Below the pieces are notes generated by a model that saw nothing but the letters and a program-made list of their open reading frames with translations, had not been told where the DNA came from and made no database searches. 64,000 nucleotides of DNA. It comes from Bdellovibrionota bacterium. GTDB taxonomy: Bacteria; Bdellovibrionota_C; UBA2361; CALJRW01. The stretch covers positions 53,002-117,001 of the forward strand of contig JBGSMD010000063.1 of the NCBI GenBank assembly GCA_041740355.1. The letters run 5' to 3'. The position numbers and the translations under genes are program-made. Shown here piece after piece: positions 3,491 through 56,734 of the stretch (its first letter is position 1; each line of letters opens with the position of its first letter).

Positions 3491-4462
3491 TTAATCTCTG
3501 GAAACAGAAATTACATTTCGTGGTAAATACTTAGATGTCCAAGAACGTGTGATCGGACTTCCGGCTGGACCTTCCGTCACTTCTAAAGTTATTTCAATAG
3601 CTCTTATTTCCTGCCATTGTTGACTAGACGTAAATGACGAGAAGATTGTTCCATCTTGCATCTCAACTCGAACCTGAAAATCGGTGATATTATTAGCAAT
3701 ATTCATAAAGAAACTAGGGTCATTGGAATCCACTAACTGTAAGATGTTAGTTGTAGTATCGAGCTGAATTCTCCATTCTTCCAATAGGTAAACAGAAGCA
3801 TTAGCAGCTGAAAAATTATGTTGCCAGTTTCCACTACTGGCAGTCTTGAAAATACGGTATTGGTTGACCCCGGCAGATACTGACAAATTTTCTACGCTTT
3901 CAAAAGTTAAATATTCGCCAACAAGACTAGATGCGTCGAAAATATAGGCTTTTGCTTCTCCACTATCTTCGCCGGCTAAGTATGCCCCCCAAACATTAAA
4001 GTTATTGGCATTGACACTATGACCACAAGCCCCTGGCAATGGGGTCAGATTAGTGCTGACGTAAGAAAAGAATAAATTTCGGTCGGCACTAGTAGCTGTT
4101 AAATTTTGACATAATAATAAAACTTCTTCTAATAAATTTCTTCTTAAAGTTAAAACGTCTGGTGCTCCGCTAGCACCATTTTGTAATAGGAGTGCTGGGA
4201 AAACTGCTGGTAAATTTGCACCTAACAAACGTACCTCCGACGAAATCACGTCGAAAACTCCGCGTAATTCCTGATTGGCCCGAACATTCACTACGTCTTT
4301 GGCGTAAAGCTTTTTGAATGAAATAATTGAAGACAAAACTATCGAGCTGACCACTACTAAGATCGAGGTTGAAACTAAAATCTCGACTAAAGTCATCCCT
4401 TTAATTGAGTTTCGTGAGCACGCTTTCCACTTCATAAACTTCTTTACTATCATAAGTGACAA
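3491..4462 (-). CDS. Type IV pilin-like minor pilin / pseudopilin (prepilin N-terminal domain)
   Basis: N-terminus ...SIKG|MTLVEILVSTSILVVV carries the class III signal with Gly at -1 and Glu at +5. The true start is probably an internal Met (MKWKAC...). C-terminal domain is unknown. Confidence 0.6.
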   Translation of the reverse strand: MSLMIVKKFMKWKACSRNSIKGMTLVEILVSTSILVVVSSIVLSSIISFKKLYAKDVVNVRANQELRGVFDVISSEVRLLGANLPAVFPALLLQNGASGAPDVLTLRRNLLEEVLLLCQNLTATSADRNLFFSYVSTNLTPLPGACGHSVNANNFNVWGAYLAGEDSGEAKAYIFDASSLVGEYLTFESVENLSVSAGVNQYRIFKTASSGNWQHNFSAANASVYLLEEWRIQLDTTTNILQLVDSNDPSFFMNIANNITDFQVRVEMQDGTIFSSFTSSQQWQEIRAIEITLEVTEGPAGSPITRSWTSKYLPRNVISVSRD

Positions 4463-4826
4463 CTACTTTTAAATGTCTTGTTTCGCTAGTTGCTGTTGGA
4501 GGGCAATATGTCATATTACTACAATAAGTTACCACAACTTGATAAGTCCTAGCACCAAAAGTGATATTGATCGGTGCGTTAGAGGTAACAGTTGAAGGCA
4601 TAGTTGTTGTATTCTCCAATCTCATTTGGTCAAAAACTTGTTGTGCCGCAATCTGAGCTTCTGATTTAATTTCACCCAGTCTTAACATACTATTTGCTTG
4701 CATTACAGAAGTACTAAAAGTTGCCGAAACAATTCCAATAATTATTAAAGCAACCAATACTTCAATTAAGCTAAATCCTGAAGCACTGTTAAAATTTCTC
4801 CCTAAAAACTTTTGTTTTAAATTCAT
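4401..4826 (-). CDS. Type IV pilin-like protein (prepilin-type N-terminal cleavage/methylation domain)
   Basis: ...NSASG|FSLIEVLVALIIIGIVSA, with Gly at -1, Phe at +1 and Glu at +5, followed by a hydrophobic helix. Confidence 0.7.
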   Translation of the reverse strand: MNLKQKFLGRNFNSASGFSLIEVLVALIIIGIVSATFSTSVMQANSMLRLGEIKSEAQIAAQQVFDQMRLENTTTMPSTVTSNAPINITFGARTYQVVVTYCSNMTYCPPTATSETRHLKVVVTYDSKEVYEVESVLTKLN

Positions 4827-4859
4827 AACAATTAATTAATTACGTTTAGGGCTGCTTCG

Positions 4860-5315
4860 TTATGAGGCAGAAATTCCTCCACCTAGAAAGATTTCAATCT
4901 TCTTAGTAAGTCCAGTCGTATCAGTAATATAAAATTCTTCATTATTTGGAAAACCACGAGAGTCAATACAAACTGACCAAGTGGTCGTGGTAAAAGTTGC
5001 CCCCACTGGTAAATCAAAGGTTAAACGTTGATCGTCGACCCAAGCATCTGCGGAATCACATGATTTGCGATAACTAGCAACAACCTGCGAATTACCGTTG
5101 GGAATAAGTTGATAAGCTACTAAATTAGCAATTGATTTAGCCTTAGCTAATTTATAAACACTAAGGACTTGATCCGTTGCAGATTGAGTTGGGGATACTA
5201 AATCTTTTAAATTCAAAACAGCGATCAACGATAAAATTCCAACTAGAGACATTACTACAAGAAGCTCGGCTACAGAAAATGCTTTAACTTGTAAAAATCT
5301 ATCTAACATACTCAT
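4860..5315 (-). CDS. Type IV pilin-like protein / pseudopilin (FimT/GspH-like)
   Basis: ...LQVKA|FSVAELLVVMSLVGILSL. Glu at +5 and a hydrophobic helix, with Ala instead of Gly at -1. Confidence 0.6.
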   Translation of the reverse strand: MSMLDRFLQVKAFSVAELLVVMSLVGILSLIAVLNLKDLVSPTQSATDQVLSVYKLAKAKSIANLVAYQLIPNGNSQVVASYRKSCDSADAWVDDQRLTFDLPVGATFTTTTWSVCIDSRGFPNNEEFYITDTTGLTKKIEIFLGGGISAS

Positions 5316-11506: not shown

Positions 11507-11730
11507 TCATACCTTCCCTGAGGTAGGGCTTTGCCCTACCTTCTTCCACTAAATCCTTAATAATTTATAATTATTTTCTTGTAACTAACTAATCAGACAA
11601 AACACTTATCTTTACATCTCGACTAAAAGTATCTTAGAATTTAGTTATCGTAACTCCAAAAAGTAATTTCCGTTGGGAATTATTTTTTGTCATAACTTTA
11701 AATCAAGCCTAAACTTCTTCAAAGAGATCA

Positions 11731-15672: not shown

Positions 15673-17364
15673 TTATAGGACTGGTACATCCCCAGCACTA
15701 GCAGGAGTTTCATTATCACCAATATTGTTTGTATTACCATAACCGATACTACCAAACTCACCGCTACCCCAACACCTAACACTACCGGTATCCAGTAATA
15801 CACATGTATGAATACCTCCGGCGGCTAGTTGAACCACGGTGCCACCGACATTTACATTTCCGACACTTGCTGGAGTTTCATTGTCACCAATATTATTAGT
15901 ATTGCCATAGCCAAGCTGACCATTTAAGCCTCGGCCCCAACACCTAACATTTCCCGTATCTAGTAATGCACAGGTTTTCTTAAAACCAGTAGCTATCTGA
16001 ACTACGGTGCCTCCGACATTTACATTTCCGACATTGGCTGGAGTTTCATTGTCACCAATATTATTAGTATTTCCATAACCAAGCTCCCCATCCGAACCTT
16101 CGCCCCAGCATCTTACATTTCCCGTATCTAGTAATGCACAGGTGTGATTCCCTGAAGCGGCCAATTGAACTACATTGCCACCAATATTCACAGCCTCATA
16201 GATAAGAGGTCCAATAATGTCATAAGTGCCCCCATGGCCAAGTTGGCCATAATAACCATCCCCCCAACACTTAACATTTCCTGAATTAACCAAGGCACAT
16301 GTATGATTACTTCCTGCTACTATTTGAGTTACAGTTTCATTTTCAAAATTGTAATCTTGAATAATAACAGACTCAAAGTTAGCAGGAGCTTCATCGTCTC
16401 CAACATTAGTAGTATTTCCGTTGCCCAGTTGGCCATTTCGTCCATAACCCCAACATTTAACTTGTCCAGTATTTAAAAGTGCACAGGTATGATTTGAGCC
16501 AGCAGAGATTTGAGTAACAGTCCCGCCAACATTAACATCTCCAGCATTGGCAGGTGTTTCAAAGTATCCAACAGAAGCAGTACTACCATATCCAAGTACA
16601 CCATAGTTACCACTCCCCCAACACCTAACTTTACCTGTGTCAAGTAGGGCACAGGTATGACCCCCTCCAGTAGCGATATCAACGACATTCCCGCCAACAA
16701 TTACATCCCCAACGCTTGCTGGTGTTTCATCATCTCCAATATTATAATGTACAGGAACAGTTGCATATCCAAGTTTACCAATAAACCCCTCACCCCAACA
16801 TCTAACTGCTCCAGTATCTAGTAGAACACAAGTATGACTAAATCCTGCCGATATTTTTTGAACATCTAAAGGTATATTACATAAGTTAGAACAAGCATCG
16901 TCATTAATATTATTTCCATCATCACACTGTTCTCCAGACTGCTTGACTCCATCTCCACAAATAGGCGTTGTGCATATATTAGTACAGGAGTCCTCATTGA
17001 TCGTATTCCCATCATCACACTGTTCAGCAATATCAACATCAACTACACCATTCCCACAGGTATGATTACAAGCAACCAGTCCTGAGACATGAAGCTTCTG
17101 CATTTTTTTTGATTGATTATTATATTTATTAATTCCGGTTGAGGCGAACAACTTCTTAAAATTAGAACTTAGCTTCTTATAGGTAATAAATTTCTTTTTT
17201 TGAATCTTCCCTGGCTTCCAAGAACCATTAACGTTTTTACAAACATAATTTATACCATCCTTTTCAACGTTTACCGTCTGGGCAAAAGCCGCCCCGGAGA
17301 ATAAAAATAGGCAGACTAGCAAAGATGAGAAGATAAATTGAAATGAGTTTTTCATATGGATCAT
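15673..17364 (-). CDS. Secreted RCC1-repeat protein with N-terminal Myxococcus-type cysteine-rich repeats
   Basis: Signal peptide. Two CGNG...EQCDDGN...C...C...C units. At least 8 RCC1-like blades with HTCALLDTGxVxCWGxGxxGxLGYG. Confidence 0.8.
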   Translation of the reverse strand: MIHMKNSFQFIFSSLLVCLFLFSGAAFAQTVNVEKDGINYVCKNVNGSWKPGKIQKKKFITYKKLSSNFKKLFASTGINKYNNQSKKMQKLHVSGLVACNHTCGNGVVDVDIAEQCDDGNTINEDSCTNICTTPICGDGVKQSGEQCDDGNNINDDACSNLCNIPLDVQKISAGFSHTCVLLDTGAVRCWGEGFIGKLGYATVPVHYNIGDDETPASVGDVIVGGNVVDIATGGGHTCALLDTGKVRCWGSGNYGVLGYGSTASVGYFETPANAGDVNVGGTVTQISAGSNHTCALLNTGQVKCWGYGRNGQLGNGNTTNVGDDEAPANFESVIIQDYNFENETVTQIVAGSNHTCALVNSGNVKCWGDGYYGQLGHGGTYDIIGPLIYEAVNIGGNVVQLAASGNHTCALLDTGNVRCWGEGSDGELGYGNTNNIGDNETPANVGNVNVGGTVVQIATGFKKTCALLDTGNVRCWGRGLNGQLGYGNTNNIGDNETPASVGNVNVGGTVVQLAAGGIHTCVLLDTGSVRCWGSGEFGSIGYGNTNNIGDNETPASAGDVPVL

Positions 17365-17730: not shown

Positions 17731-19401
17731 TTACAATACTGGCACATCGCCTGCACTAGCCGGCGTTTCGTCATCACCTATATCGTTGATATTACCATAT
17801 CCAAGATTACCCTCATCCCCATATCCCCAACATCTTACAGCACCAGTATCTAGAAGTGCACAAGTATGACTAACAATATAAGAAATTCTAGCATTTGAAG
17901 TAGTTATTTGAGTAACAGTGCCACCAACATTAATATCACCAACGCTAGCTGGAACCTCATTGTCTCCAATCGTTGTAAAATTTCCATAACCAAGTTGACC
18001 AGAACCTCCAAAACCCCAACACTTCACGGCACCAGTATCAAGTAGTGCGCAAGTGTGAGTTTTACCCGCAGATATTTGGGTTACCGTACCGCCAACATCA
18101 ACGTTATCAATACTTGCAGGTGTTTCATTGTCACCAACACTATATATATTACCGTAACCAAGTTGGCCCTCTTCGGCATATCCCCAACATTTTACTGCTC
18201 CAGTAGCTAAAAGCGCACAAGTATGATTATTGCCAGCAGATATTTGAGTTACTGTACCACCAACATTTATATCACCAACATTAGCTGGAGCCTCATTATC
18301 TCCAATAGTTTCAACATTTCCATAACCAAGTTGACCAGAACCTCCAAACCCCCAACACCTAACGGCACCATTATCAAGTAGTGCGCAAGTGTGACCACTG
18401 CCCACAGATATTTGAGTTACAGTACCGCCAACATCAACGTTACCAATACTAGCAGGTGTTTCATTGTCACCAATACTATTTGTATTACCGTAACCAAGTC
18501 GGCCATTTCCTCCATCGCCCCAACATTTTACAGCTCCAGTATCTAAAAGGGCGCAAGTATGCTTTCTACCAGCCGATATTTGAGTTACCGTACCGCCAAC
18601 ATCAACGTTACCAATACTAGCAGGTGTTTCATTGTCACCAATACTATTTGTATTACCGTAACCAAGTCGGCCATTTCCTCCATCGCCCCAACATCTTACT
18701 GCTCCAGTATCTAAGAGTGCGCATGTATGTTCTTCTCCCGCTGATACTTGAGTTATAGTACCACCTACATTCACATCTCCAACACTAGTTGGAGTTTCGT
18801 TATCTCCAATATTGATTACATTAGCATATCCAAGTTGACCAGAACCTCCATAGCCCCAACATTTAACATTACCAGTCTCCACAAGGGCACAGGTATGCGC
18901 ACCACCAGCGACTATTTCCAAGACTTTGTATAGACAAGTATTCGGACAAGTATCATCATCGTTACTATTCCCATCATCGCATTGTTCATCAGACTGGACA
19001 ATTCCATCACCACATTCTGGAAAATTACAAGAATTAGTACATAAGTCTGTGCTAACTAAATTCCCATCATCACACTGCTCACCCATGGATACGTCTAATA
19101 TTGTGTTTCCACAGGTATGACTACACGCAACTAACCCAGCTATATGCAGGTTCTTCATTTTTAGTGATTGCTTATTATATTTTTTTAAGGCAGTAGCTAC
19201 ATATAATTTCTTTAGATCTGATTGTAGTTTCTTGAAAGTTATAAATTTCTTTTTCTGGATTTTACCAGGTTTCCATGAGCCTTTAATTTGACTGCAAACA
19301 AACGTTTGTCCATCTTTAGTAACGGTAACTGTCTGTGCAAAAACTGAAGATGATAAACAAAAGAATACACAAGCGGATAATAATGAAAGCCTAATTTTCA
19401 T
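17731..19401 (-). CDS. Secreted RCC1-repeat protein with Myxococcus-type cysteine-rich repeats (tandem paralog)
   Basis: Same architecture as 15673..17364 and highly similar. Repeated HTCALLDTGAVxCWG blades. Confidence 0.8.
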   Translation of the reverse strand: MKIRLSLLSACVFFCLSSSVFAQTVTVTKDGQTFVCSQIKGSWKPGKIQKKKFITFKKLQSDLKKLYVATALKKYNKQSLKMKNLHIAGLVACSHTCGNTILDVSMGEQCDDGNLVSTDLCTNSCNFPECGDGIVQSDEQCDDGNSNDDDTCPNTCLYKVLEIVAGGAHTCALVETGNVKCWGYGGSGQLGYANVINIGDNETPTSVGDVNVGGTITQVSAGEEHTCALLDTGAVRCWGDGGNGRLGYGNTNSIGDNETPASIGNVDVGGTVTQISAGRKHTCALLDTGAVKCWGDGGNGRLGYGNTNSIGDNETPASIGNVDVGGTVTQISVGSGHTCALLDNGAVRCWGFGGSGQLGYGNVETIGDNEAPANVGDINVGGTVTQISAGNNHTCALLATGAVKCWGYAEEGQLGYGNIYSVGDNETPASIDNVDVGGTVTQISAGKTHTCALLDTGAVKCWGFGGSGQLGYGNFTTIGDNEVPASVGDINVGGTVTQITTSNARISYIVSHTCALLDTGAVRCWGYGDEGNLGYGNINDIGDDETPASAGDVPVL

Positions 19402-27308: not shown

Positions 27309-28568
27309 ATGAAGAATAACTTATCAATTTGGTTCATTCGCCTCAGGTGGTTTGCCTTCATAGCGCAGATTATTATCCTTGCTTCAACGGTTTTATTTTT
27401 TAAGGTTGAAGTTAACTGGCAAAAGATTGCCCTAATCTTATCCGCACTTCCCCTTTCCAATATCATCACAACCCAATTTCTAGTTAAAAAATTTTCGGCC
27501 CAAGCAATTACTATTTGTTTAATTTTTTTAGATACTATTATTTTATCGGCAATTCTTTATTTGTCTGGCGGACCTGCTAATCCTTTTACGATTGTATTTC
27601 TACTGCACCTAGTTCTAACTGCAGTCTTACTCGATGAGCGTTGGACTTGGGTTATGGCACTCACAACCTGTGCCGCTTATGTCTTTTTATTTTTCTTCTC
27701 TCCAGAGACTGGAAGCGATCATCAACATCATCATGGATCTTCAAACTCTTTTTCCTTACATTTATATGGAATGCTATTTGCTTTTATTACCGTAGCAGTT
27801 CTTGTTGCTTATTTTCTAAATAAGATTATTACCGAACTTCGGTTAAAAGAATTGCGACTTCAAAAACTGGAACAGTTAGCTGTAAATAGCCAACGTTTAG
27901 CATCATTAGTAACTATAACAGCAGGAACCGCTCACGAACTAGGAACTCCATTAAGTACTATTGCCGTAGTCTGTAAGGAGTTAGAACTAGAGCTCAAAAA
28001 TCTAAATCCCTCGCCAGAAATTTTAGAAGATCTGCATTTAATTCAGCAAGAAGTGGGTCGTTGCAAAGATTACCTGTCAAATTTATCAGAGAAAACTGGC
28101 GATCTTACGGGAGAAACTCATCAAAGTATTTCGGCAAGAGATTTAATAAGTCAGATTATTGCTCCACTTTATAACAAAAACCATCGATTTGAAATTGAAG
28201 GTTCAGCAGATCATATTTTAAATTTAATCCCTGTGAAATCCCTAACAATTGCTATTAGAGCTCTAGTTAAAAATTCTCTAGATGCTTCAAGTGGGAGTAT
28301 TAAGAATGTTACCATTCGCCATCAAATAATTAATAATTATAATCAAATCGAAATCATAGACTTTGGCTTGGGGATGGATCCGGAAACATTAGAAATGATT
28401 GGGGAACCATTTTTCTCTCAAAAAGATAGCAAAGATGGTTTGGGTTTAGGAGTTTATTTATCAAAACTTGTTGCCAACCAAATTGGTGGAGAGCTAACTT
28501 TCACTTCTACAATATCCCAAGGCACTTGTGCTAAATTTCGATTTCCAGTAATTCCCTGTAAAGCATGA
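27309..28568 (+). CDS. Membrane sensor histidine kinase (RegB/PrrB-like)
   Basis: Five to six N-terminal TM helices. H-box ITAGTAHELGTPLSTI. G-boxes DFGLGMD and GLGLGVYLSK. Confidence 0.75.
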   Translation: MKNNLSIWFIRLRWFAFIAQIIILASTVLFFKVEVNWQKIALILSALPLSNIITTQFLVKKFSAQAITICLIFLDTIILSAILYLSGGPANPFTIVFLLHLVLTAVLLDERWTWVMALTTCAAYVFLFFFSPETGSDHQHHHGSSNSFSLHLYGMLFAFITVAVLVAYFLNKIITELRLKELRLQKLEQLAVNSQRLASLVTITAGTAHELGTPLSTIAVVCKELELELKNLNPSPEILEDLHLIQQEVGRCKDYLSNLSEKTGDLTGETHQSISARDLISQIIAPLYNKNHRFEIEGSADHILNLIPVKSLTIAIRALVKNSLDASSGSIKNVTIRHQIINNYNQIEIIDFGLGMDPETLEMIGEPFFSQKDSKDGLGLGVYLSKLVANQIGGELTFTSTISQGTCAKFRFPVIPCKA

Positions 28569-29104
28569 CCGCCAAGAACCTACGAAATACAATCTTAACT
28601 ATTGATGATGATGGAATTTTTCGTGATCGATTAACCAAAGCTTTTGCTAAAAGAGGGTTAATCGCTGAGCAGGCAGAAAATAGTACGGAAGCATTAAAGA
28701 AAATTAAAGAATTAAATCCAGACTTAATTGTTCTCGATCTGAAGCTTGGTAATGAATCAGGGTTAGATTTAATTACTGAAATCCTAGTTCTCTGCCCCAA
28801 AACTAAAATTGTGATGCTTACTGGATATGGCACAATCGGCACGACGGTTGAGGCAATGAAAAAAGGTGTGGTAAATTATTTAACAAAACCAGTTGATGCT
28901 GATACAATCTTAGCTGCTTTTCTAGGAGAGATAAAAGTTAATTCTACAACAGGAATTCCCCCACTCCACCAAATAGAATGGGACTATATTCAAAAAATCA
29001 TTGAGCAGTGCGAAGGTAATATTACGAAAGCATCTAAGTTATTGGGATTACACAGGCGCTCATTGCAAAGAAAAATGAAAAAAAGTCCTGGCTCCCTAAA
29101 ATAA
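28565..29104 (+). CDS. Response regulator, RegA/ActR/PrrA family (receiver plus Fis-type HTH)
   Basis: Receiver with DD...D...K. C-terminal HTH ITKASKLLGLHRRSLQRKM, very close to the RegA MHRRTLQR motif. ATGA overlap with the kinase gene. Confidence 0.8.
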   Translation: MTAKNLRNTILTIDDDGIFRDRLTKAFAKRGLIAEQAENSTEALKKIKELNPDLIVLDLKLGNESGLDLITEILVLCPKTKIVMLTGYGTIGTTVEAMKKGVVNYLTKPVDADTILAAFLGEIKVNSTTGIPPLHQIEWDYIQKIIEQCEGNITKASKLLGLHRRSLQRKMKKSPGSLK

Positions 29105-30916: not shown

Positions 30917-31333
30917 TATAGTATCGTTTTCAATCTAGTCGCTTGGTATATTAAATGCGTAGCACTTGTAGCGACCCTAGGGGGGTGCTTAGGTTAAAAT
31001 GCTTATTGCATAAGCATTTTAACTTGGGAAAACAAATATACTATAGTCATCCCAATAAATAATTTCCGCTAGGAAATTATAAAACAGATCATGACTATAG
31101 AAGCGACCAGCGGGAGCCAAAAGATAAATAGTAAACCCAACTTTAAAAAACAGAGTTAAACCATCGGTTTATCTATAAACTTAGATCCTTAAATTACTTC
31201 AGGGTAAAAAAAATAAGGGTCAGCAAAAGTCTTAGTTAATCTATTTATCGGAAATCTATTTTTGGGTTTACTATATAATCCGAGATACGCAAAAAGTAAT
31301 TCCCAATGGAAATTACTTTTTGGGCTCACTATA

Positions 31334-32221
31334 CTAAAAAATAACTGCTGGATCACGTCGATAAACACGCTCTTGTTCTAATAAATAATTTTCATCTCCA
31401 GCTAGGTTAACAATCTGACGCATGACATCGCGATATTCTGATTTCTGATCACTGCTTAATAAAAAAAGATTTTGTCTTAGCTTAGACTGAGACTCTCTGT
31501 TGTAAGTGATTTGCTGTCTTATTTGCTCTAACTTTTCAATTCTTTCAGCTTTATCCATCGTCATCAAATCGACAATACCATCAATCAGGATTCCTGCCGC
31601 TTTAGCCGTAGATTCTTGTAATTCTCTTCTTTGAAGAAAACTACCAATCTCTTTTGAGTACTCTTCTCTTAGTTGTTTTGTGTTTGAACCAAATGCTTCG
31701 AGTGGAATGACTAAAGTATATCTTTCTGATAAATCAGAAAATGCCGTTAATAATTTATTTATTTCAAGTAAATTATTATAAATTAATTTTTTTAGTTCAC
31801 CAGCAATACTGGCATCCATTAACATTATCTCAGAAATTTCAATTAATTTTTCTGGATTAGAAGTCGCTCTTTGAATACTCTTAGCAATCTCTTCAAAGTC
31901 ATTTCTACTTAATAGATCCTTTAAACGCTGAGCCTCAGCGGGACTATCTGCAATAACTTCTAAAATTAATTTTAAGTTTTCGGGGTCCATTTTTCGTAAA
32001 CTCTCTCCGCGATTATTGGTAAGATAAGTGACAGCTTCACGTAAATTATCAAAATTTCTGTTAAGATTCTGTAAAGTTTCCTCAGTCGTCTTACGATCAA
32101 CCACAGTAAAATGATCCTTGGCATTTGTTAATTCGCGCACTAAGTTATTAAGCCCATCCTGCTGGATAATATCGCGTGGATTTAGAGTAGGGTTTCTTTC
32201 TTGTTGGATCGGATTTGGCAT
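31334..32221 (-). CDS. Hypothetical protein (295 aa, helical/charged)
   Basis: ORF. A palindrome aaaagtaattccc-aat-gggaattactttt lies directly 3' of the stop. Confidence 0.45.
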   Translation of the reverse strand: MPNPIQQERNPTLNPRDIIQQDGLNNLVRELTNAKDHFTVVDRKTTEETLQNLNRNFDNLREAVTYLTNNRGESLRKMDPENLKLILEVIADSPAEAQRLKDLLSRNDFEEIAKSIQRATSNPEKLIEISEIMLMDASIAGELKKLIYNNLLEINKLLTAFSDLSERYTLVIPLEAFGSNTKQLREEYSKEIGSFLQRRELQESTAKAAGILIDGIVDLMTMDKAERIEKLEQIRQQITYNRESQSKLRQNLFLLSSDQKSEYRDVMRQIVNLAGDENYLLEQERVYRRDPAVIF

Positions 32222-50532: not shown

Positions 50533-50763
50533 ACGACCACTTCCTCTTTACGACAAAACATTTCTAAAAACTCGGTAAGTTTTGAAATGTTTTTGGTTAA
50601 ATCTGGAAGAAAAAATCTGCAAGTCTAACCCTACTAAGATTCAATCTTATTAAAAGTTCTATATTGAATATGATCACTAAGCAAGATTTATTATTTTGTG
50701 TTTAGCTAAAAAAAATGTTGACAGAAAAATCAAAAGTTCAAGATTTTAAGTGAATGATTCTTT

Positions 50764-50895
50764 AGTTATGACAAAAAGTAATTTCCAAATATTTCAAAGG
50801 TAGTTTTTTGTCATAACTATATGATATTATTATCCCTCCGGGGGATAGTAAGCCCCAAAAAGTAATTCCAAACAGAAATTACTTTTTAGGCTTAC
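50764..50895. repeat. About 135-bp nested-hairpin repeat element, copy 1
   Basis: 13-bp inverted repeat gttatgacaaaaa/tttttgtcataac, then agtaagcc...ggcttact enclosing aaaagtaatt...aattactttt. About 80% identical to 54004..54140. Confidence 0.55.
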
Positions 50896-50915
50896 TAAAT
50901 TTGTCCTTGATTAAA

Positions 50916-53320: not shown

Positions 53321-53803
53321 TTAAGTTATATTTTGGTAATCTAAAACCTTAAAAAGCTCCTTCATTTTTTGATATCGATAATCAAAAATGTTCTTAAGCT
53401 GATTCTTTACCAACAACTCTCTCGCTATTTGACCAAAGATGCCACAAGGCATTCCATAATGAACTAAATCTTCTACCACCAAGCCTTGATCTGTTTTTCT
53501 AAATGAATGTTGATGGTGCCAAAACTTATAAGGTCCAAAGCGCTGCTCATCTATAAAATACTCCCGATCTTTAACCTGGGTAATTTCCGTCACCCATTGC
53601 ATTGGGATTCCAAGTAAAGGATAGACTCGATACTCTATTATCTTGCCAGGATATATTCTTCCATCTTCTGCGCCAGATATAAATTTAAAGTTTAAAAACT
53701 CAGGTGTAATAATCTTCAGATTCATCGGATTACTAAAGAAGTCCCAAATAGTTTCCAGATCTTCATTTAGGATAAATCTTTCTTTGATCTGATAAATTTT
53801 CAT
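53321..53803 (-). CDS. SRPBCC (START/Bet v1-like) family protein
   Basis: Size and polyketide-cyclase-like pattern. Weakly recognised. Confidence 0.5.
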   Translation of the reverse strand: MKIYQIKERFILNEDLETIWDFFSNPMNLKIITPEFLNFKFISGAEDGRIYPGKIIEYRVYPLLGIPMQWVTEITQVKDREYFIDEQRFGPYKFWHHQHSFRKTDQGLVVEDLVHYGMPCGIFGQIARELLVKNQLKNIFDYRYQKMKELFKVLDYQNIT

Positions 53804-54003
53804 AAAATATTGCTTTGATTATAATACTAGCCACTTTACTGATGAATCTTTTCAAATAAAGATTACTTACTAAATTAAGTATCTATGACGTAAGAACTAG
53901 ATTAAATTGCACAACTTTTCTTAGATTAGGATATTCAAATTCAATCGCTGTCCAAGTAAATTTGCAAACTGCCAAAAAGTGTATCGCTGCGGATGAGTTT
54001 TAT

Positions 54004-54140
54004 AGTTATGACAAAAACTAATTTCCGAATATTTAAAAATTAGTTTTGTGATTTTTGTCATAACCGTATGATTTTATAACGCTTGCGGGGGATAGTAAGC
54101 CCCAGAAAGTAATTCCTATTGGAAATTCCTTTCTGGACTT
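54004..54140. repeat. About 135-bp nested-hairpin repeat element, copy 2
   Basis: See 50764..50895. Confidence 0.55.
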
Positions 54141-54407
54141 ACTATAGTATATTTATTTTGCTCAGATTCTAAGTTTATTTTATAAGGTCTAGAGACTTAT
54201 GCGAACCCCTTGGGTCACATCAAGCACTTTATGCTTGAGATACGAGGCAACCAGATCTTATTAAGGAAAGTTTCAATGTCGCCTAGTATATTCTTGGATT
54301 TAGACTAAAGCTGGACTATTTGAGCTTAAAAATTAATGTTTGTTAAATATAATGTCGAACAATTATTAGCTTTCAAATTTAACTTAAACGACTTAATAAA
54401 TACAAAA

Positions 54408-54961
54408 ATGAAACTCCAAAACTCTAAAGCTCTAAAGCTCAACATAGATTTACCTTAGTTGAGCTTTTAGTAGTTACTGCAATTATTGGTATCCTAGCCT
54501 CAGTCAGTGTGGCCAACTATGATGAATATAAAGCTAAGGTAAATGATACTCGGGCTGAGTTAACTGGTAGAAATTTAATTACGGCGGGAGAAGTCCACTT
54601 GAATGATTTAAGAGATCTACAATCGACGAATTCCCTGACATCGTCAGTTGCCTATAGCCCAATGGAGGGTAATGAATATTTAACATCAGGAGGACATTCT
54701 CTAGACATCAGATCCCTAATCTCACCAGCCCTACTTCAAGGAAACGATCTATTCTTTAATATGATGGTCGAAATGCGCAGCGCATCTCATGCCGCTAGCA
54801 GTGCAGGATTAAGAGAAAGTATTCTAATTAATATTCTAGCTTGTGGAGGAAATAATCTTTTCCATATGAATCATACGAACTTATATAATCACAATACAAT
54901 TCACCTAGATAGCTCCCCAGGAAGTACAGTTCCGGCATTAAGATCTATGTTCTGCGGTTAG
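54408..54961 (+). pseudogene. Type IVa pilin-like gene with 5' frameshift at an 8-bp tandem duplication (ctctaaag x2)
   Basis: ATG at 54408 gives MKLQNSKALKLNIDLP-stop. The mature-pilin frame (FTLVELLVVTAIIGILASVSVANYDEY..., with two C-terminal Cys) is offset by +2. Removing one ctctaaag copy restores a single frame. Confidence 0.5.
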
Positions 54962-55070
54962 TTTCTAAATAGCTTGTATTGTTAAGTTATTTTAAAGATC
55001 GATAATTTTACCTCTCTAACGACTTGTAAATAGGTATTAAATTTGCTAATTATCCCAGTCTACAAAGTTT

Positions 55071-55143
55071 GCCCAGATAGCTCAGTTGGTAGAGCAAAGG
55101 ACTGAAAATCCTTGTGTCGACGGTTCGATCCCGCCTCTGGGCA
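55071..55143 (+). tRNA. tRNA-Phe (anticodon GAA), CCA not encoded
   Basis: Near-identical to E. coli tRNA-Phe (GCCCAGATAGCTCAGTTGGTAGAGC...ACTGAAAATCC...TTCGATCC). Anticodon loop cuGAAaa. Confidence 0.85.
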
Positions 55144-55173
55144 CTTTTTCACAATTTTATTGTGAAAAAGTGC
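55141..55173 (+). terminator. 15-bp perfect-stem hairpin overlapping the tRNA-Phe 3' end, with a U-run inside the stem
   Basis: gcactttttcacaat-ttt-attgtgaaaaagtgc, read directly. Confidence 0.5.
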
Positions 55174-55331
55174 ATAGCTATTTTCGTAGAAAATAGCTGG
55201 GCCATACATCTAAAGGATGTTGCATAATAATTTTGAGTCATAGATACAGTCTTTTTCTTAACCTAATTCTCAAAATTATTGGGCTACTTTCGCCTAGCGA
55301 AATAAAGTGCATAGTAATTTTCTGAAAGAAA

Positions 55332-55429
55332 ATTACTGGGCAATTACCAGAATGGTGTTGCATAGCTATTTTCGAAGAAAATTACTGGGCAATTACCAGA
55401 ATGGTGTTGCATAGCTATTTTCGAAGAAA
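55332..55429. repeat. Exact 2 x 49-bp tandem duplication within a larger array of hairpin units
   Basis: attactgggcaattaccagaatggtgttgcatagctattttcgaagaaa is repeated twice head to tail. Confidence 0.8.
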
Positions 55430-55705
55430 ATAGCTGGGCATTATCCGAAGGATAATGTTTAGTAGTTCTTCCTAAAACTACTAAACCCGAGCACCGCGAG
55501 GGTTAATAATTCTGATCTCAGAATTATTAAGCAATCATCCGCAGGATGATGCTAAGTAGTTTAAGGAAAAGCTACTTGGCACCGAGTTCTTTAAAATTCA
55601 AAAGAAAACACTGAACCCTAAGCAAACATAATCTAACCCCACTTGCTCAAAACCTACTAATAATAACGACTAGGTACTACCTCACCCCTTTTTCCTCCCC
55701 CACTC

Positions 55706-56734
55706 TTGCGCTATGCTACCCCCATGTCCTCTAAAGAAATAATTGAAAAAATTAAAGTGCTGGCAACTCAACCAACACCCCCTCGACAAATCGCAATAAT
55801 TGCTAGCGATCGCATACTCCGAGAACGCACATTAAATAGCTTTGCGGAAGAACTAAAACTCCAAGCAGAGGGTAAATGGAAATATGATATTAAGCGAATT
55901 AAATTATCTCAAGCCAAAGACCAGGATTTAAAAACTTTTATCTTTGAATCTAATGCCCAATCTTTTTTTTCTAAGAAACAAATTTTCTTAATTGAAGAAC
56001 TAGAAAAAGTTAGCGGTCCACAAACAGATATTTTGCTAAGCTTATTTAAGCAAAGACAAACTGAAAATTATTACTTTTTTCTGGGCACCGGGTTACTCAG
56101 TACTAGTCGTTTAATGAAGCAATTTAAAGAGCAGAACTCTGTAATCACACTGCCCAATTTGAAACTGCCGGAATTTAAAAATTGGATCAAAGGAGAGTTT
56201 AATTCTAAAAATCTTTTGCCTGAGCCTAGAGTGATTGATCATCTAGCTCAAAGCTGTGAGCTTTTAACTGACATCGCCCTAGCTAAGATTGAGCAACTAG
56301 AATTATTTGCAGATACTCAGAAAATCACACTTAGTATGGCAGAAGATCTTTTTCCAAGTGAGCTAGCTTTAAAGAAGTTTGCTTGGTTAGATGCCATCTC
56401 CTCTGGCAACAAGCTATTAGCTCAAAAGCTTGTTAGTCAAGCACTGTCTGAAGGTAAAGAAGCACTAGGGCTGACTGCACTTATTCAAGGTAATTACTTA
56501 AATTATTATTTAATTATCTCCCTTCGAAATCAGGGTTACTCTCAACAACAAATTAAAGCTTCCTTGAAAATAGAACCCTGGCTTTTCGATTTACAATATT
56601 CCACAGCTTCCCAAAAAGACTTAAAAAGATTAATTAAAGACTTAAAAGTACTCGTACTCGCTGATAGTAAATTAAAAAATAAGTCTCTAGGTAGCGAAGC
56701 TGTTTTGCACGAACTAATTAATTCTTTATCTTAA
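55706..56734 (+). CDS. holA: DNA polymerase III subunit delta (HolA)
   Basis: Size of 342 aa and a three-domain clamp-loader delta pattern. Located in a tmk-holB neighbourhood. Moderately recognised. Confidence 0.6.
   Translation: MRYATPMSSKEIIEKIKVLATQPTPPRQIAIIASDRILRERTLNSFAEELKLQAEGKWKYDIKRIKLSQAKDQDLKTFIFESNAQSFFSKKQIFLIEELEKVSGPQTDILLSLFKQRQTENYYFFLGTGLLSTSRLMKQFKEQNSVITLPNLKLPEFKNWIKGEFNSKNLLPEPRVIDHLAQSCELLTDIALAKIEQLELFADTQKITLSMAEDLFPSELALKKFAWLDAISSGNKLLAQKLVSQALSEGKEALGLTALIQGNYLNYYLIISLRNQGYSQQQIKASLKIEPWLFDLQYSTASQKDLKRLIKDLKVLVLADSKLKNKSLGSEAVLHELINSLS

Follow-up and report, generated by a model that had tools for sequence, protein, structure and literature searches.

Type IVa pilins, such as PilA and PilE (PF07963, TIGR02532), carry a short hydrophilic leader that ends in Gly at position -1, the prepilin peptidase cleavage site; Phe1, Glu5 and a 21-residue hydrophobic alpha1-N segment follow, and the long alpha1 helix rests on an antiparallel beta-sheet with a C-terminal Cys pair. 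Two further systems are close to the locus described here: the opa genes of Neisseria, in which CTCTT repeats in the leader region give rise to coding-repeat phase variation, and pilA of P. aeruginosa, which lies beside tRNA-Thr in a hypervariable slot next to a tRNA gene. In this work, we analyzed a pilin-like locus at positions 54408-54961 of a 64,000-nucleotide stretch of DNA (the whole of which we call the window) from a Bdellovibrionota bacterium (assembly GCA_041740355.1, contig JBGSMD010000063.1). With a probability of roughly 0.75, we consider this locus to be a lineage-specific pseudogene of a type IVa-type pilin that was inactivated recently and bears two lesions: the leader-coding region contains an 8-bp tandem duplication, and the codon at position -1 specifies Arg.

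The locus resembles type IVa pilins in its hydrophilic leader of about 11 residues, once one copy of the duplication is removed, in Phe1, Glu5 and the 21-residue alpha1-N, and, in the predicted structure, in a long alpha1 with an antiparallel beta-sheet and a C-terminal Cys pair. It differs from them in having Arg where Gly(-1) is invariant, in its out-of-frame start codon, in an orphan head domain without detectable relatives and in its isolation from assembly genes. As in opa, the reading frame of a surface-structure gene depends on a short direct repeat within its leader-coding part; unlike opa, only two full 8-mer units are present, the two available assemblies show no heterogeneity, and the in-frame state is still defective at the cleavage site. 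Like P. aeruginosa pilA, the pilin gene directly precedes a tRNA gene and lies where related genomes differ from one another, but no pilB, pilC or pilD adjoins it. The features of the locus are the following:

54326..54353, plus strand: sigma-70-like promoter candidate, TTAAAA-16-TATAAT (10/12 matches), about 55 bp upstream of ATG 54408
54408..54458, plus strand: leader frame in its present state, with an ATG opening MKLQNSKALKLNIDLP and a TAG stop, read from the sequence
54422..54440, plus strand: 8-bp tandem duplication tract, CTCTAAAG CTCTAAAG CTC, from a scan for period-8 tracts
54446..54448, plus strand: Arg codon AGA, residue -1 of the class III signal peptide, from the codon read and the comparison with relatives
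54449..54961, plus strand: mature pilin coding region, 170 codons plus TAG, with Phe1, Glu5, the 21-residue hydrophobic alpha1-N, Cys132 and Cys169
54509..54961, plus strand: 150-amino acid fragment called by gene callers from a GTG start, present in the open reading frame (ORF) list and identical to the public protein P0001

From ATG 54408-10, the present leader frame (ATG AAA CTC CAA AAC TCT AAA GCT CTA AAG CTC AAC ATA GAT TTA CCT TAG) encodes MKLQNSKALKLNIDLP* and stops at 54456-58, and only its first 7-8 codons match the original prepilin leader. The pilin frame is the +2 frame, open from 54428 to 54961 (TAG at 54959-61), with a product that reads SSKAQHR-FTLVELLVVTAIIGILASV...FCG* (also written from its start as SSKAQHR-FTLVELLVVTAIIGILASVSVANYDEYKAKVNDT...MFCG); relative to it, ATG 54408 lies in the +1 frame. 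Between the upstream stop, TAA 54425-27, and GTG 54509, the pilin frame holds no ATG, GTG or TTG, so that its first start codon is this GTG, inside alpha1, and the current sequence is not translatable as a single ORF from a start codon. For this reason, ORF callers and the public annotation, P0001, whose sequence is identical to the mechanical ORF call, give only the 150-amino acid C-terminal fragment. Without the leader and the transmembrane half of alpha1, this fragment is an annotation by-product of the frameshift.

Two copies of CTCTAAAG, at 54422-29 and 54430-37, are exact, and the period-8 identity runs three bases further to give a 19-nt tract (54422-54440), the longest perfect period-8 tract in the window. 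Based on 200 windows simulated with a Markov-1 model, tracts this long are expected 0.04 times per window, whereas bare two-copy tracts are expected 1.35 times; base composition thus does not explain the tract, which is a real duplication. Its consequence is an insertion of 8 nt, equivalent to a +2 frame change, between the only usable start codon and Phe1. Removal of one CTCTAAAG copy places ATG 54408 in frame with the pilin and yields a 181-amino acid ORF, MKLQNSKAQHR/FTLVELL..., where the slash marks the processing junction, with a leader of 11 residues, a typical length (the median among 153 relatives is 9 residues). A different ancestral start, suggested by the resemblance of SSKAQH to the leader MSSKLQHIEKG of the related pilin P0008, was considered and rejected, since the repaired reading, NSKAQH, holds the same residues and the resemblance is thus uninformative.

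The second lesion lies at the cleavage site itself. Gly(-1) has been described as invariant in bacteria and 'absolutely critical' (review PMC4471445). Among the 153 nearest pilin matches, the -1 residue is Gly in 146, Ala in seven and Arg in none, and all 19 subfamily members of our alignment A1 have Gly or Ala at this position. At our locus, the leader ends in Arg instead; the AGA codon at 54446-48 is one transition away from GGA, and no GGN codon occurs in any frame between ATG 54408 and Phe1. The three pilin-like genes at 3491-5315 of the window, on the minus strand, have the junctions SASG/FSLIE, IKG/MTLVE and QVKA/FSVAE, and thus give no hint that the peptidase of this organism differs from others in specificity.

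The mature coding region has the characteristics of a genuine pilin. The Glu5 codon is located at 54461-63, and in the segment FTLVELLVVTAIIGILASVSV, which includes Glu5, 20 of the 21 residues are hydrophobic or small. The repaired product scores 24.8 bits against Pfam PF07963 N_methyl (gathering cut-off, 21.2) and 21.6 bits against TIGR02532 IV_pilin_GFxxxE (cut-off, 16.3); its best NCBIfam similarity is to the Myxococcus-type PilA, far under the equivalog cut-off. Structure prediction indicates a pilin fold, with a long alpha1 on an antiparallel beta-sheet. Cys132 (54842-44) and Cys169 (54953-55) are the sole Cys residues and form the D-region pair, presumably joined by a disulfide bond, a trait typical of type IVa pilins in diderm bacteria; the C-terminal Cys is invariant in the 20 aligned subfamily members. 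No stop interrupts the 170 codons of the mature part, versus 18-20 in the off-frames, and the probability of 177 open codons at this composition is about 5e-6. The mean log2 codon log-likelihood ratio of the pilin frame is 0.198, against 0.10-0.37 in 24 window genes and about -1.1 in its own off-frames; the codon usage is host-like and native. Hence, a genuine type IVa-type pilin gene adapted to its host is present here, or was until very recently.

What a reading of this DNA from its sequence only had described is confirmed by these results: a type IVa pilin-like gene of which the ORF track calls just the C-terminal part, an ATG at 54408 opening a 16-codon leader frame that terminates, a canonical pilin N-terminus upstream in another frame, a perfect 8-bp tandem duplicate whose one-copy deletion fuses both frames, and a -1 residue that is Arg, not Gly, even after repair. 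The pilin assignment now rests on the N_methyl and TIGR02532 matches, the fold prediction and matches to pilin profiles.

With regard to its relatives, an exhaustive HMMER search of 1.84 billion representatives (E <= 1e-3) returned 721 matches, essentially all of them through the alpha1 helix (query residues ~5-90), while the only match to the head domain was the 150-amino acid fragment itself. A word-indexed protein search found the same fragment and generic alpha1 matches only, and a DNA-level scan of metagenome contigs gave no head-domain relative. The comparison with orthologs that the sequence-only reading had called for was consequently impossible, as neither the protein searches nor the metagenome scan gave an orthologue. 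The profile of the 20-sequence alignment, which comprises our protein and the 19 subfamily members, matches solved major pilins, namely, Geobacter PilA-N, Myxococcus PilA, P. aeruginosa PAK, Neisseria PilE, Thermus PilA4/5 and E. coli PpdD. The subfamily, part of the HMMER matches, is an uncharacterised one of metagenomic pilins (P0008, P0010, P0025, P0027, P0028, P0114, P0123, P0126 and others), with which the window protein shares the alpha1-C motif S(V/I)AN(Y/F)xEYKxxxND, two Cys residues close to the C-terminus, the lack of Pro22, an 'HCxG'-like motif ~35-45 residues ahead of the C-terminal Cys, and a length within 150-190 amino acids. The identity to all 19 members is 24-33%, and F1, E5 and the C-terminal Cys are invariant across the alignment. 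Unlike our locus, all of these have an intact ORF with Gly or Ala at -1, and the likeness past alpha1 is weak. No pilus-related Pfam match was found among the neighbours of P0008, P0025 and P0114, which lie on short contigs.

Taken together, the ancestral gene would have encoded a prepilin of ~181 amino acids, with an 11-residue leader, MKLQNSKAQH-G, an alpha1 beginning FTLVE... and a beta-sheet head in which a disulfide linked Cys132 to Cys169. The duplication of CTCTAAAG would have moved the start out of frame, so that ribosomes initiating at ATG 54408 would stop after 16 codons, and a single transition would have turned the cleavage-site codon from GGA into AGA. Even after reversion of the duplication, cleavage by the prepilin peptidase should fail, and the prepilin should stay out of the filament. 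The duplication, the relations between the frames, the Arg codon, the assignment to the pilin family and fold, the native codon usage and the lack of relatives are observed; that the ancestor had GGA, which of the two events came first and that the gene is silent are inferred. That an otherwise pristine ORF carries two independent changes of the null type argues for a young pseudogene, and the stop-free gene body with host-like codon usage indicates that the inactivation was recent. The locus thus most likely descends from a type IV pilin and, lacking both Gly(-1) and a translatable ORF, is a pilin-family pseudogene rather than a functional pilin.

Several points weigh against this conclusion. 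The 170-codon body is fully intact, as expected of a gene still in use, be it through reversion or recoding, and the gene has retained a plausible promoter and an AT-rich start context without a Shine-Dalgarno (SD) sequence, as other genes have here. The GGA at -1 in the ancestor is deduced from the conservation of the family, and the silence of the gene from its sequence. In addition, our searches found no orthologue with which to calculate the ratio of nonsynonymous to synonymous substitution rates (dN/dS), and a relaxation of selection is, for that reason, unmeasurable. The signals for expression are themselves modest: the promoter candidate at 54326..54353 is the top-scoring site within 53800-55750, but the nine sigma-70-like sites of this interval are not above the 6.9 expected in shuffles, and as evidence for a promoter it is weak. 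There is no SD sequence upstream of ATG 54408, which is uninformative, since only five of the 38 long ORFs in the window have one.

The sequence-only reading had left open whether the locus was a reversible switch or a fixed pseudogene. If the CTCTAAAG units formed a slipped-strand switch, the one-copy state would be ON and the two-copy state OFF; the loss of one unit does restore the frame exactly, the number of units sets the reading frame, the tract lies in the leader-coding region, where a change of units leaves the mature protein unaffected, and the gene retains an intact body with native codon usage and a promoter-like site. Nevertheless, contingency loci depend on longer arrays for high slippage rates, and this tract amounts to ~2.4 units (two complete units and three more bases, spanning 19 nt). 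Moreover, the ON state would keep Arg(-1), which should block processing; no orthologue or paralogue with a similar tract appeared in the protein and metagenome searches; and the only second assembly, possibly from the same reads, is in the same two-copy state. A phase-variable pilin is therefore improbable, and the pseudogene side of the earlier alternative is favoured by the second lesion, the low number of units, the agreement of both assemblies and the failure to find an orthologue. That second assembly was produced by Logan from the public run SRR28170465; its contig L001, of 1010 bp, matches window positions 54098-55107 with zero mismatches, both copies included. It comes from an independent assembler, possibly from the same read set, and is silent on minority alleles. 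It also bears on the possibility, named beforehand, that the duplication is an assembly error, in which case the true genome would have one CTCTAAAG copy and an intact ORF. Frameshifts in otherwise intact genes are sometimes such errors, and a shared read set would weaken the independence of both assemblies; however, an exact 8-bp tandem duplication is atypical as an error of any platform or assembler, its reproduction by a second assembler argues against an artefact, and the Arg(-1) defect is independent and would remain. We regard an artefact as quite improbable.

Further readings would keep the two-copy sequence and give it a role. Relative to the ATG, the pilin is read in the -1 frame, so that a -1 shift in the tract (e.g., of tRNA-Lys from CUA_AAG to AAA) would yield MKLQNSKALKAQHR-FTLVE..., an uncleaved, membrane-anchored pilin-like protein with a non-filament function. 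A_AAG is a slip-prone site for tRNA-Lys in some bacteria, and this context is present ahead of an intact body with native codon usage. On the other hand, 54408-54458 contains no X_XXY_YYZ heptamer but only the single-tRNA A_AAG context, the 93 nt at 54438-54530 fold at -18 kcal/mol (z = -0.34 versus shuffles), no SD-like stimulator lies upstream, no homologue has the same arrangement, and Arg(-1) is found in 0 of 153 relatives, all of which makes recoding highly unlikely. It is just as doubtful that low-frequency switching or -1 slippage maintains a live 'anti-pilin', whose Arg(-1) product would stay leader-attached in the inner membrane and might, for instance, regulate the pilus machinery or act as its decoy. 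A silent, pilS-like cassette, kept to donate sequence by recombination to a pilin locus that is expressed, would account for a non-expressible pilin with an intact variable head and for the repeated elements that flank it; such cassettes, however, are without promoter and conserved N-terminal coding region, whereas this gene has a promoter-like site and its N-terminus, and no protein, including those of the genome's own public proteome, shares the head domain, so that there is no recipient locus. This possibility is hardly credible, and the same applies to a functional 150-amino acid product from GTG 54509, which has in its favour that gene callers report the ORF: it would begin in the middle of alpha1 with no signal peptide, membrane anchor or SD sequence, and the 27 in-frame codons upstream encode a textbook pilin alpha1-N, showing truncation.

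The locus is flanked by housekeeping genes on both sides, in the following order:

51972: DsbA-like gene
52599: RsmE gene
53321-53803, minus strand: gene for a 160-amino acid protein of unknown function
55071..55144, plus strand: tRNA-Phe (GAA), the right-hand boundary of the variable slot
55706: holA
56745: SLT transglycosylase gene

No pilus assembly gene (peptidase, ATPase, platform or secretin) was found among the window ORFs scanned, and an Rfam scan of 53700-55800 returned only the tRNA. HolA and RsmE have one close relative each, at 69% identity, both in GCA_031385045.1, while the next RsmE relatives are at 44-45% identity; with RsmE, the scan of contigs of representative genomes gave only an unrelated 30% match (Lichenibacterium). 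The lineage is sparsely sampled. The nucleotide homology with the sister genome GCA_031385045.1 extends through the 160-amino acid gene to 53804 and resumes at 55039, 32 bp before tRNA-Phe, and the assembled parts of that genome hold no counterpart of the pilin gene and its promoter region; its assembly breaks at the slot, where contig L005 starts 230 bp upstream of tRNA-Phe and contig L007 runs into an IS110-family transposase. In a more distant relative (L009), tRNA-Phe directly follows RsmE, and three unrelated genes precede holA. Based on these comparisons, the pilin sits in a variable slot upstream of tRNA-Phe, with repeated palindromic elements on either side (53993-54149 and 55141-55490), and looks accessory and dispensable. 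At the end of the sister contig, 175 bp upstream of tRNA-Phe, L005 1-56 carries an ORF of which only 17 codons are available and which runs off the contig and terminates in ...KATNYFKCDGAGRKTMV*; with a Cys near its C-terminus and at the position of the pilin gene, it might be the tail of a different pilin allele. Sister contig L007 also encodes, at 4043-4201, a 52-amino acid Flp/Fap pilin (PF04964), in a region otherwise syntenic with window positions ~47.5-48.4 kb.

Three types of repeats were observed around the slot. Directly after tRNA-Phe, 55141-55490 is an array of palindromic REP-like units with the core TGCATAGCTATTTTCG(A/T)AGAAAATAGCTGGGCA; it includes two identical 49-bp copies in tandem (55326-55374 and 55375-55423) and a perfect hairpin of 15 bp (55141-55173) that overlaps the 3′ end of the tRNA. 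The sister genome keeps one unit behind its tRNA-Phe (L005 331-366), and the contigs of both public assemblies break at this array. The second family consists of dispersed, partly palindromic intergenic repeats at 53993-54149, 50754-50897, 31290-31336, 31029-31075 and 11646-11702, with ~79-83% identity between copies; the Logan contig L001 begins inside the copy that precedes the pilin gene. The third is a structured element of ~150 nt, with a single window copy (54145-54300), just upstream of the pilin promoter candidate, and two copies in the sister locus (L007 11865-12035 and 1310-1475, both on the reverse strand). It has three internal palindromes (e.g., GCGACCCCCAAGGGTCGC and CAAGCGCTTCGCGCTTGA), TAGTATAT at both ends and a mean column identity of 81% over the three copies. 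One of the sister copies, next to an IS110 transposase, is inverted with respect to the flanking 160-amino acid gene. The element has no Rfam match and may be a miniature inverted-repeat transposable element (MITE) or a small RNA.

Other loci of the window merit a brief description. The minor-pilin-like cluster at 3491-5315, on the minus strand, encodes proteins of 151 (FSVAELL after Ala(-1)), 141 (G/FSLIEVL) and 323 (G/MTLVEIL) amino acids, the last two ORFs overlapping by 62 nt; located beside a radical-SAM gene, with no assembly genes nearby, it looks like a minor-pilin or pseudopilin operon. Two tandem paralogues at 15673-17364 and 17731-19401, also on the minus strand, encode RCC1-repeat (beta-propeller) proteins of ~560 amino acids with DUF4215 Cys-rich domains, an unusual domain combination in a bacterium. 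At 27309-29104, a histidine kinase with a weak PilS-like match in its transmembrane domain adjoins a short response regulator (receiver and Fis-type helix-turn-helix, with no AAA+ domain), and no pilin gene follows.

In view of these results, the public call of a 150-amino acid hypothetical protein should become 'type IV pilin family pseudogene, frameshifted', and the finding matters little beyond annotation. If it were true that an uncleavable pilin-like protein is expressed, or that the duplication is a switch, the locus would be of interest to researchers of type IV filaments, although nothing that we found points there. As a pseudogene, the locus would represent a gene death caught early, in which a small duplication and a cleavage-site substitution have arisen in a pristine, host-adapted ORF, within a variable slot on the side of a tRNA gene in an AT-rich lineage.
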